DNA from: a virus
Taxonomy: Duplodnaviria; Caudoviricetes
Virus record (IMG/VR): IMGVR_UViG_3300007770_000001
Direction: 5' to 3' (one strand)
DNA length: 64,000 nt
In this document: positions 50,867 to 53,457 of the stretch, piece after piece
How positions within the stretch are numbered: position 1 is the stretch's first letter
Layout: every line of letters starts with the position of its first letter
Translations under genes and position numbers: made by a program
The notes under the pieces: model-generated
Databases searched by the model: none
Told to the model about the DNA's origin: nothing
Seen by the model: only the letters and a program-made list of their open reading frames with translations

Positions 50867-51190
50867 ATGGCTGAAAGACTCACCCTCAAGACCTACTACG
50901 CCCTCGTCGACCGACTTGCAATCGAGGCAGAGGCACGGAAGGAGGCATGGCCTCGAGAACGCGGCTACAAGGGTGGCTTGGAGTTCTCCCACGAGGTCGT
51001 CCAGGAGGAGGAGTCTCCCCATACCCAGGACCCCATTCTTGGTCTGGTTCTCCTCTCGTTCGCCTCCCGACCCGGTATTGCTTGGGAGGACTGCCCGATG
51101 CACAATCCGACCCGGGACTTCGCTCGGAACACCAGAATCCTGGCTCGTGAGGCCCTCATCTGGGATGTGTATCAACGCATGACGATTTGA
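50867..51190 (+). CDS. Hypothetical protein
   Basis: 107 aa with AGGA RBS. Confidence 0.65.
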   Translation: MAERLTLKTYYALVDRLAIEAEARKEAWPRERGYKGGLEFSHEVVQEEESPHTQDPILGLVLLSFASRPGIAWEDCPMHNPTRDFARNTRILAREALIWDVYQRMTI

Positions 51191-51219
51191 GGTTTCCTCA
51201 CTCCTCCCAGCGACGTAAC
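51189..51219 (+). promoter_or_regulatory. Phage promoter motif (original ligase promoter)
   Basis: GAGGTTT-N16-GACGTAAC, then AAGGAG and ATG 51244. Confidence 0.8.
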
Positions 51220-51243
51220 GGTAGGGAAGGAAGGAGAAACCTC

Positions 51244-51339
51244 ATGGCCCAGATCGCCGACCAGATCGCCACTCGCCTCCTCGCGGCCTCCCGCGCCTAC
51301 TACGGTGGCCGCGAGCCCTGTGGGCTTTCAGGATTCTGA
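51244..51339 (+). pseudogene. Orphaned original 5' end of the DNA ligase
   Basis: MAQIADQIATRLLAASRAYYGG aligns without gaps to [22 protein letters not shown] (11/22 identical). Confidence 0.85.
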
Positions 51340-52272
51340 AGCGTTTTGCGCTTTCCTTCTTGCCCAACGTCTTTTTTGGGATTCGCTCATTTTCCTGCGG
51401 GTCTCGGCGGATGTTACTTTCCCCGTATGGGTTTTCCGGACAGCTTCAGAGACCTTATTCCTGAAGTCTGGATCTTCCCATTGAGATACCATCTTTGCTC
51501 TCGCCGCTTCTCTCCGGGTTCCGTCGTCCTGGGACCACGCTTCCAGAGAGCGTTGTCGAACCCTTTCACGAATCGTATTGCCACCTTTCTCCCACCGTTC
51601 CCGTTGGGCGGTTGACATCTTCTGCCGAGACTCCTCGGAGTGAGTCCGCCCTTCCCAGTATTTGTTGCCTTGGTGTGCCTCGCTGATCTTTCTACGGGTC
51701 TCGGCAGACACGGTTTTCCCTCGGTGGGCTGCTCCAATCTTCTTTTTGGTTTCCGCTGTGTGCTTTTTACCTGTGGCTGCATCTGTTATCCTTCGGAGGG
51801 CGTCTGGGCTATGCACATGACCCCTCATCCGTTCTCTAATCTGCTCCACATGAGATTCTGACAGCTTCCTGCCCGACATCGCTCTGCTAATCTTGGCTCG
51901 GGTCTCCGGAGTGTGGGGAATCCCTATTCGGATTCGGCCCTTGGGGCATATATTGTATCCGGTGGTATGGGGTCTGAGGCGGTCTAACCATTTCTGTTCC
52001 GACTGCTCTACTCCTTCCGGAGAAACCTTTTCGAGGACACTCACTGAGAATGTCTCCTCCCCGTATTTTTCCCAGGCTCGTTGGAGCTTTTGGGAGTGAT
52101 GGGACCCTCTCCTGAGACTCCGGAAATGTCCCATTAGACGAGTCCTGATATTGACAGATCCTCCGACATACACTTTTCCGTTCAGGGTGTTGCTGATCTG
52201 GTAGACTCCCGAGCATTTCCGAGGGTCTCCCCCTACATCCCGTATCGCAGCTTCAATTGTGGGCACGTCCAT
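51328..52272 (-). CDS. GIY-YIG homing endonuclease with NUMOD3-type repeats
   Basis: GVYQI-x-N-x-x-NGKVYVGGS...R-x-x-x-H...F-x-x-x-VLE...EQ...YN; repeated H-T/S-x-ET-R/K-x-KIS-x-A motifs. Confidence 0.93.
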   Translation of the reverse strand: MDVPTIEAAIRDVGGDPRKCSGVYQISNTLNGKVYVGGSVNIRTRLMGHFRSLRRGSHHSQKLQRAWEKYGEETFSVSVLEKVSPEGVEQSEQKWLDRLRPHTTGYNICPKGRIRIGIPHTPETRAKISRAMSGRKLSESHVEQIRERMRGHVHSPDALRRITDAATGKKHTAETKKKIGAAHRGKTVSAETRRKISEAHQGNKYWEGRTHSEESRQKMSTAQRERWEKGGNTIRERVRQRSLEAWSQDDGTRREAARAKMVSQWEDPDFRNKVSEAVRKTHTGKVTSAETRRKMSESQKRRWARRKAQNASES

Positions 52273-52311
52273 ATGATGCCTCTTGAGATAGGCTGTCTAT
52301 TATTGTAGTAC

Positions 52312-52341
52312 AGGTTTCTCTTTGGATTGCATAGACGTAAT
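52312..52341 (+). promoter_or_regulatory. Phage promoter motif (replacement ligase promoter)
   Basis: AGGTTT-ctctttggattgcata-GACGTAAT (N16), then GAGGAG and ATG 52360. Confidence 0.8.
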
Positions 52342-52359
52342 AGGCTTAGAGGAGTTCTG

Positions 52360-53457
52360 ATGCCTACCGATATCCAGAACCTGGTTGACCGACTACTGAC
52401 CGCTTCGCGTGCGTACTATTCGGGGGAGAGTCTTATCTCTGATGCGGAATACGATGCACTCGAGAACCAGCTGCGGAAGCTGGATCCGGATCACGAGGCG
52501 CTGAGGCAGGTGGGGGCTCCCACGGACAGCGGCTGGCCCAAGGTCCCCCACACCCGCCCCATGGGTTCTCTGAACAAGGCCCAGACCGTCGAAAACTTCT
52601 ATGCCTGGGCGCGGAAGTACCCCGCCTCCGAGTACATTGCCACCGAGAAGCTCGATGGCATCAGCCTCTGCCTCGTGTATGAGAACGGCGAGTTGGTGGC
52701 TGCCCGCACCCGGGGCGACGGCACTATCGGTGAGGACATCACTCGCAACGTCCGCATCATGCAGGGTGTCCCTCCCGTTATCGCGGAGAAGCGAACCACG
52801 AACATCCGCGCCGAGATCATCTGCCGGAAGTCCCAGTTTGCCCTTCACTTCCAGGGCGACAGCAACCCCCGGAACACGGCGTCCGGGACGGCCAAGCGCC
52901 ACACCGGCTGGCAGAAGTGCCGCCACCTCGACGTGGTCGCTTACAACCTTGACGTCGAGGGCTACCGCTCGCTGAGCCGGACCGAGGAGCTGGACCTCCT
53001 GGTCGCCATGAACTTCCAGGTCCCCAACGCCCTGGTCCGAAGCGCCGGTGGCGTTGTCACCATGTATGGTGACTACATCCACGGGACCCGTGCCGGCCTC
53101 GACTACGACATCGATGGTCTGGTGGTTGAGATCAACACGACCGTCGACCGCGAGGCCCATGGCTCGCATGATATGCGTCCCCGAGCCGCCGTGGCATTCA
53201 AGTTCCCCCACGAGCAGGCCGAGACGATCATCCGTAACATCATCTGGCAGGTCGGGAACTCCGGCCGCATCACCCCCGTAGCCGTCTTCGATCCTATTCC
53301 CCTGGCGGGAGCTCAGGTCAAGCGCGCCTCCCTCCACAACGTCGCGCGGGTCCAGCACCTGCAGCTGGCGCCGGGCACTCGTATCCTGGTGAGCCGGCGC
53401 AACGACGTCATCCCGGCCGTGGAAGCGAACCTCGACCTGAACATTCGCGTCAGCTGA
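52360..53457 (+). CDS. ligA: NAD-dependent DNA ligase, N-terminal part (Ia, adenylation and OB domains)
   Basis: YY-x-G-x-x-x-ISD-x-EYD, H-x-x-PM-x-SL, EKLDG, TRGDG-x-x-GED-x-T-x-N, DG-x-VV, A-x-KF, QVG-x-SG-x-ITPVA, A-x-LHN, R-x-NDVIP. Confidence 0.95.

Follow-up and report, generated by a model that had tools for sequence, protein, structure and literature searches.

The N-terminal part of the DNA ligase gene (ligase-N) of an uncultured huge phage (Duplodnaviria; Caudoviricetes) has two starts, separated by an antisense, free-standing GIY-YIG/NUMOD3 homing endonuclease gene. The locus lies in a 64,000-nucleotide (nt) stretch of the IMG/VR record IMGVR_UViG_3300007770_000001, hereafter the window. 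The upstream start is a short, stranded open reading frame (ORF), which we refer to as the orphan, and the downstream, live start leads into the remainder of the ligase gene. We consider it probable that the 5′ end of a donor’s ligase gene was transferred together with a ligase-associated endonuclease gene, which would make the live ligase a chimera. All of the elements listed in a preliminary description of the locus, i.e. a promoter-like motif, a ribosome binding site (RBS), the orphan, the antisense GIY-YIG/NUMOD3 gene and the second start, are present in the window (Table 1).

The orphan ORF opens with the ATG at 51244 and runs for 31 codons to a stop at 51339; its first 25 codons are ligase-like (...RLLAASRAYYGGREP). 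The preliminary description, which had located the orphan at about 51245 and credited it with 22 codons, was thus right about its presence and needs adjusting in position and length. When the orphan and the live start were compared without anchoring, the signal was weak: the ligase pair scored 54 in a tile scan, which is within noise (background of about 55), and a comparison of the flanks barely exceeded its shuffles (62, with a highest shuffle score of 60), so anchored tests were needed. The match of the orphan to a 110-position hidden Markov model of the whole domain was likewise weak (E=0.29). Scored against the ligase N-termini of 119 relatives, the orphan ranked first of the 980 ATG-initiated 25-mers in the window, and the same anchored scoring gave 68 for the orphan as compared to 60 for the live start, with the best unrelated peptide reaching 40. 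Furthermore, the orphan matched a 45-position N-terminal profile with 18.2 bits (E=0.0019). Its best matches are the N-termini of P0036 and P0018; as these go on ...GGGEPLMSD, homology extends through codon 25, with the break directly before the conserved SDAEYD block (after the P, relatives read [LIV][MI]SDAEYD, and the window diverges there). As judged by the anchored comparisons, the orphan is a true ligase start. Its GC content at third codon positions (GC3) is 0.72, which is host-like (about 0.75 for the phage as the host of the element). A small inverted repeat spanning the left junction is no more stable than its shuffles (z = -0.9).

Between the start of the endonuclease gene and the live ATG at 52360 lies an 87-nt AT-rich spacer, which contains a second exact copy of the promoter-like motif followed by a Shine-Dalgarno sequence (SD), in agreement with the second promoter and new RBS of the preliminary description. 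From this ATG ligase-N extends over 365 amino acids with adenylation and OB domains, as identified with Pfam. The orphan and live N-termini share 11 of 22 residues, with nearly every shared residue specified by a different codon, and the two motif copies (51190-51218 and 52312-52340) have only the consensus boxes in common, their spacers being unrelated. The live copy is therefore a diverged allele and neither a recent copy nor a synonymous recoding. It follows that, while the ‘recoded, AT-richer N-terminus’ described earlier does have a low GC3 (0.55), it is a divergent homologue of the orphan, and the proposal that the element duplicates the host’s promoter and N-terminus has to be dropped.

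The composition of the locus points in the same direction. GC3 is 0.55 in live codons 1-33, 0.89 in codons 34-60 and 0.85 further downstream (0.86 for all codons past 33 taken together), as compared to 0.56 for the endonuclease gene and 0.69-0.85 for the remaining genes of the window. Mapping of the GC breakpoint, as the preliminary description had suggested, gave a maximum-likelihood change point in ligase-N at codon 33 (about 52458; log-likelihood gain of 7.8), with endonuclease-like GC3 upstream and host-like GC3 downstream. The low-GC3 tract thus extends past position 52425, where the element had been thought to end. Lying about 9 codons beyond the equivalent of the orphan’s end, the change point fits a conversion tract that extends beyond the break. 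Among 39 likely genes, the drop in GC3 over the first 33 codons averages 0.04 (sd 0.11); the two largest drops are those of ligase-N (0.31) and rIIA (0.29), exactly the two genes that bear an orphan. These observations support a single compositional unit, foreign to the host, that comprises the endonuclease gene, the second promoter-like motif and RBS, and the first ~33 ligase codons. From composition and by analogy with an independent contig, L018, described below, we infer that the live copy is foreign and the orphan native; most simply, the live copy is the donor’s own ligase 5′ end adjoining the endonuclease gene.

Table 1. Features of the ligase locus in the window, with comparable features elsewhere in the window and in relatives.
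Feature	Position	Strand	Details
Gene upstream of the orphan	ends 51190		107 aa
Putatively native promoter-like motif	51190..51218	+	AGGTTTC-N15-GACGTAA(C), GC-rich spacer; from motif statistics and position
Orphan SD	51231..51236	+	AAGGAG, 7 nt ahead of ATG; direct reading
Orphan, putatively native ligase N-terminus	51244..51318	+	25 codons of LigA Ia domain, ending ...ASRAYYGGREP
Left junction	51319..51327	.	9 nt from the final ligase-like codon to the endonuclease stop codon
GIY-YIG/NUMOD3 homing endonuclease gene	51328..52272	-	full-length, free-standing, 314 aa, antisense to ligase
Box CTACAATAATAGA	52296..52308	-	candidate -10-like promoter element of the endonuclease gene, ~25 nt upstream of its SD
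Second promoter-like motif	52312..52340	+	AT-rich spacer; 3 nt from the endonuclease box, opposite direction
Live SD	52349..52354	+	GAGGAG, 5 nt ahead of ATG; direct reading
Live ligase, first 33 codons	52360..52458	+	foreign composition (GC3 0.55); putatively donor-derived 5′ end
Rest of ligase-N	52459..53457	+	adenylation and OB domains; host composition (GC3 0.86)
Third promoter-like motif	53457..53484	+	in the 52-nt gap between ligase-N stop (53457) and ligase-C ATG (53510)
Ligase-C	53510..54304	+	Zn finger, HhH, BRCT; separate gene, different frame
Copies of the relaxed motif	8278-8305(-), 20396, 26680, 40530, 51191, 52313, 53457, 63817		
Boxes comparable to CTACAATAATAGA	L090 ~1221-1233; L034 ~318-327; L018 ~917-926		CTACCATAATAGA in L090; TAGTACAATA in L034 and L018
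Relatives at the ligase split site			L024, L027, L058/L059, L084, L094; P0003 contigs

The antisense gene carries a GIY-YIG domain (PF01541, E 1.5e-8) and three NUMOD3 motifs (E 2.1e-21) by Pfam, as had been recognised earlier, and the 314-amino-acid protein is annotated as a homing endonuclease in PHROGs. Its catalytic domain matches that of I-TevI (PDB 1MK0, 1LN0) with E about 7e-16; the I-TevI catalytic residues Y, Y, R, H, H, E and N are all aligned (GVY, YVG, R, H, H, E and GYN in register), and in an alignment with four relatives the C-terminus reaches their end, i.e. the protein is full length. As judged by these alignments, the gene is intact and of the I-TevI/Seg type, with predicted cleavage activity. 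An AT-rich box (CTAC[AC]ATAATAGA or TAGTACAATA) precedes all four related endonuclease genes and occurs in a single copy in the window; it may be a -10-like promoter of the element’s own.

To place the endonuclease, we built a tree with 82 relatives. The window protein groups with those of the contigs L018, L034 and L090 (SH-aLRT 89), and none of 500 label shuffles gave an equally tight group. All five known members of this set (the four above and P0126, on a neighbouring branch and 24 nt upstream of a ligase gene) adjoin the 5′ end of a ligase gene, while P0167, on the next branch, is not ligase-adjacent. The P0126 contigs have upstream ORFs of 32 and 54 amino acids, which are candidates for ligase orphans. 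The occurrence of the GIY-YIG gene at the ligase 5′ end is sporadic: it is absent from L019 and L020, which carry ligase relatives, and from 78 of 80 other huge-phage ligase loci in IMG/VR, gathered by alignment-based search (a single-protein ligase query gave no match). The nearest relative of the endonuclease, P0122 (45% identity), is encoded on L018, an independent 2-kb contig, and its surroundings repeat the arrangement of the window. There, the endonuclease gene is sense-oriented; ahead of it lies an orphan of 37 codons (...YYNQTPEVSDAV, followed by a stop), and the live ligase start comes 42 nt past the endonuclease stop, with no promoter motif in these 42 nt. The two L018 starts have 20 of 37 residues in common (score of 111 against a shuffle maximum of 37), and their GC3 values are 0.78 for the orphan and 0.49 for the live start.

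L034 (47% identity) and L090 (44%) have their endonuclease genes in sense orientation directly upstream of full-length ligase genes, with no orphan, and the duplication is therefore an occasional outcome and not an obligatory part of the element. In L019 and L020 (58% identity), ligase-N comes right after the upstream gene, with neither endonuclease gene nor orphan, and a second ligase N-terminus was found at none of the 80 other IMG/VR ligase loci. Duplicates persisting in endonuclease-free relatives, which had been named as an outcome that would speak against the insertion, were thus not seen among these loci. The duplication accompanies the endonuclease and is not retained without it, whereas the endonuclease can adjoin a ligase gene without any duplication.

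The motif ahead of both ligase starts recurs in the window. AGGTTTC-N15-GACGTAA occurs in six exact copies in 64 kb as compared to none in 100 shuffles, and with one mismatch allowed there are 10 copies where 0.25 are expected. A relaxed pattern, (A)GGTTTC-N15-GACGTAA(C), finds eight copies, all eight with an SD and a start codon 17-27 nt downstream. At the ligase loci of related phages the motif is nearly absent (1 match in 696 kb), and in the relative L019 (58% identity) the upstream box is similar but the downstream box differs. Given these statistics, the position at gene starts and the rarity in relatives, the motif behaves as a lineage-specific promoter class; we refer to it as promoter-like, its promoter function being putative. 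Scans of the locus for sigma-70 promoters and terminators yielded nothing useful.

The locus itself is well represented in marine samples. An identical ligase protein is encoded on one ENA scaffold of 338,860 bp and on 16 further contigs, and the window locus is present at 100% identity in six seawater or marine DNA runs from two studies; in all 17 contigs the structure is identical and includes the endonuclease gene. No empty allele was found in these contigs, located through the ligase-N, ligase-C and upstream 107-amino-acid proteins, and the six runs contain only the occupied form, with no contig joint that skips the insert. RNA runs with this stretch were likewise looked up, and none was listed. 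A blastn search of the locus against 50,697 phage records returned zero matches, and an exact 23-mer of the orphan retrieved from the JGI metagenomes only unrelated bacterial genes that share the peptide AASRAYYG. As the upstream 107-amino-acid gene has no detectable homologue before the ligase in L019 or L018, these contigs provide no synteny-based empty site.

In the scenario we favour, an I-TevI-type GIY-YIG gene, drawn from the small clade that sits at the 5′ end of phage NAD-dependent ligase genes, would have entered the resident gene after codon 25. The donor’s adjoining ligase 5′ end, consisting of about 33 codons preceded by an RBS and by a promoter belonging to the same class, would have travelled along and been fused in frame to the resident ligase near codon 33, with the resident promoter, RBS and first 25 codons left upstream as the orphan. 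Since members of the clade usually sit immediately ahead of a ligase start, their transfer tends to bring the donor’s ligase 5′ end with them; and as the window, L018 and L019 have unrelated genes upstream, recombination could operate only on the ligase side, stranding the recipient’s start up to the break. For the nuclease, we predict cutting of ligase alleles free of the insert, around the stretch that encodes the conserved Ia domain (codons ~25-32), and resistance of both the diverged live copy and the interrupted orphan. The right side would have been resolved inside the ligase, and the left side either by a homology-free join at the break, in a first invasion, or with the orphan serving as the left homology arm of a pre-formed cassette. 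Once formed, the structure could home into related phages, again with the orphan as left arm, and the very tight boundaries favour some role for such homing of a pre-formed cassette. As the endonuclease gene is antisense in the window, the new 5′ end would need its own promoter, while in L018 the native promoter could read through the orphan, the endonuclease gene and the ligase; a promoter in the cassette thus seems to be needed only in the antisense case. The stranded native promoter of the window would now transcribe antisense into the endonuclease gene.

With its own complete start, the live gene needs no splicing in this scenario. Rfam, group I introns included, gave no match over 50500-54500 up to E=1, and the splice-free insertion proposed in the preliminary description is upheld. 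A group I intron-encoded endonuclease was accordingly rejected as a candidate: Rfam detects no ribozyme core, the gene is antisense and the live gene brings its own start. The same three observations count against removal of the insert at the RNA or protein level more broadly, be it as a group I intron, an intein or by translational bypass, although a relative’s ligase (that of L090) does host an intein. Together with an assembly artefact, against which stands the identical structure in 17 contigs from six runs, we regard this explanation as scarcely credible.

The nearest competitor to co-transfer of a donor flank is a purpose-built cassette, in which endonuclease and replacement promoter, RBS and N-terminus always form one mobile unit that homes precisely into ligase ORFs, with the orphan as left homology arm and the duplication as a defining, selected feature and not a by-product. 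While the tight boundaries, the recurrence of the architecture in L018 and at rIIA (see below) and the intact promoter of the orphan would all suit such a unit, L034 and L090 carry the endonuclease gene upstream of the ligase with no orphan, flanking duplications are seen at only one or two of 67 other GIY-YIG loci and the L018 cassette lacks a promoter; we consider it unlikely. The order of events could also have been the opposite, with the ligase promoter and 5′ end first duplicated in tandem in situ, before the endonuclease gene landed between the two copies and the downstream one drifted. This would explain why both copies have the same host-specific promoter consensus; however, the downstream copy shares its composition with the endonuclease gene and not with the host, the GC3 asymmetry is the same in L018, and no relative has the duplication without an endonuclease gene. 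Moreover, nearly all codons differ and the spacers are unrelated, yet the 17 contigs are mutually identical. In situ duplication is, in our judgement, improbable. Even less probable is a reversed polarity, with the short upstream copy having arrived with the endonuclease and the full downstream start being native: beyond the symmetry of the architecture nothing recommends it, and the GC3 of the orphan (0.72 as compared to about 0.75 for the host) and of live codons 1-33 (0.55, endonuclease-like, with a sharp change point within the ligase ORF) argues against it.

Several observations sit less comfortably with transfer of a donor’s ligase 5′ end. Nine of the 10 conserved codons differ between the two starts, but this excess is not significantly beyond saturation (estimated p about 0.09). 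All other clade members are sense-oriented, and the antisense gene of the window requires either that the donor was laid out differently or that an additional inversion took place. The junctions are very tight (9 nt after the endonuclease stop in the window, 18 nt before the box in L018), which suggests something neater than a random illegitimate join would predict. The second motif copy fits the phage’s own lineage-specific consensus exactly, so that either the donor shares the promoter specificity or the site adapted after insertion. Finally, as neither an empty allele nor a close donor was found, the assignment of native and foreign copies rests on composition and on the analogy with L018.

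How general is the arrangement? The parallel at rIIA drawn in the preliminary description is real. At 21866-23334 of the window, an orphan of 39 codons, opened by an ATG at 21866, is identical to the live rIIA start at 23218 in 19 codons, and the two starts are separated by an antisense gene for a 362-amino-acid endonuclease/resolvase-like protein (21980-23068); the rIIA identity is supported by PHROGs (E 6e-81), and the gene has the second-largest 5′ GC3 dip in the window. Among 67 other GIY-YIG loci in IMG/VR, a clear flanking duplication was found in L113 only, as a 13-residue C-terminal end (one or two of the 67 counting any duplication), and 10 additional GIY-YIG loci showed none. The architecture is therefore uncommon but recurrent. 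In L113 (2340-3560), the upstream gene ends ...RPLKLSDLRAKYTN and a stray copy, RSLKLSDLKAKYT, stands directly past the endonuclease stop; this looks like an mORF-type replacement of a 3′ end in a phage.

The closest known counterparts are the fungal mitochondrial mORF hybrids, i.e. atp6 of Allomyces macrogynus and atp6, atp9, cox2 and nad3 of Glomus, in which an endonuclease ORF brings a foreign C-terminus and the native terminus is displaced (PMC3630166). They share with the window a free-standing endonuclease gene (GIY-YIG or LAGLIDADG) within a host ORF (PMC3630166), and a diverged duplication of the gene terminus that flanks the endonuclease (in the window and in L018). The foreign copy of the hybrids, in frame with the gene core next to a displaced native copy and attributed to horizontal transfer together with the endonuclease, has a putative counterpart in the live start of the window, as judged by composition. 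Unlike in the mORF hybrids, it is the 5′ and not the 3′ end that is replaced in the window, so that promoter and RBS have to be part of the transfer; moreover, the endonuclease gene of the window is antisense, its host is a double-stranded DNA huge phage, and the native copy was assigned by composition. The window locus is a 5′-end variant of the mORF gene hybrid, not a strict member of the class.

Among phages, SegF and SegG of T4 engage in intronless homing by double-strand-break repair with co-conversion of donor flanks (PMC2988022). As in the window, a free-standing GIY-YIG gene adjoins its target gene, and their intergenic layout is matched exactly by L034, L090 and P0126 beside the ligase. 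In T4, however, the gene is intergenic, recipient sequence is replaced and there is no orphan (terminal duplication is not mentioned in PMC2988022), whereas in the window the junction lies within an ORF and a stranded gene start remains. In Aeromonas phage Aeh1, insertion of mobE in nrdA has produced genes-in-pieces (PMC2988022; PMC3045599); as in the window, an important replication gene of the phage is broken up by an intron-less insertion of a homing endonuclease gene and remains functional, but both Aeh1 nrdA fragments are needed and assemble as proteins. We rejected this type for the orphan/live pair, as the 25 orphan codons are redundant, being duplicated in the live gene; it does fit the separate split between ligase-N and ligase-C (53457-53510). 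I-TevI of the T4 td intron has, like the window protein, a catalytic domain followed by NUMOD3-type DNA-binding repeats, but the window gene lies outside any intron and has a longer NUMOD3 array. In the literature searched, the coverage of which is incomplete, we found no phage precedent for such a replacement of a gene start.

The ligase of this phage group is broken at further positions. In the window it is split at the boundary between the OB and Zn-finger domains, with a promoter-like motif in the gap, and in at least five relatives a TnsA-like PD-(D/E)XK nuclease gene (PF08722, E 1e-7 to 8e-13) lies exactly between the ligase halves. This suggests that the split marks a second site of nuclease insertion, from which the nuclease is now absent in the window and in L019/L020. 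In L090 (2215-5707), the ligase is a ‘fractured gene’ as in PMC2677866, interrupted by a split intein at its KxDG active-site motif (junctions ...MDKLDGAS/CFDGETLV... and ...VLAHN/CGL...), and a 326-amino-acid nuclease-like ORF lies between the intein-split halves in addition to the upstream GIY-YIG gene. Elsewhere in the window there are tandem whole-gene paralogues with no nuclease, at 5732-6610/6611-7438 (292 and 275 amino acids) and 35824-36090/36313-36591 (88 and 92 amino acids), and a release-factor-like gene (PCRF and RF-1 domains by Pfam) at 48581-49303, 1.6 kb upstream of the locus.

With three or more independent sites of nuclease insertion, the ligase of this phage group is a suitable model locus in which to follow the reshaping of an enzyme gene by selfish nucleases. 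Besides introns and inteins, the locus offers a third route by which a homing endonuclease can reside inside a phage gene, namely a replacement start with its own transcription and translation signals. It also accounts for the occurrence of short orphan ORFs and for dips in 5′ composition, which annotation pipelines misread, and provides a signature for screens, in which a nuclease gene is combined with an orphan terminus and a change point in GC3. More speculatively, free-standing endonucleases of huge phages might, by bringing along portable gene ends (either a C-terminus or promoter, RBS and N-terminus), routinely invade ORFs, with the stranded native end acting as a homology arm and, in the antisense case, as a convergent promoter that restrains endonuclease expression; we put this forward tentatively, as a possible general and selected splice-free alternative to introns and inteins. 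If true, such portable gene ends would make essential phage genes chimeric at their termini. Horizontal transfer can leave core replication genes with chimeric 5′ ends.

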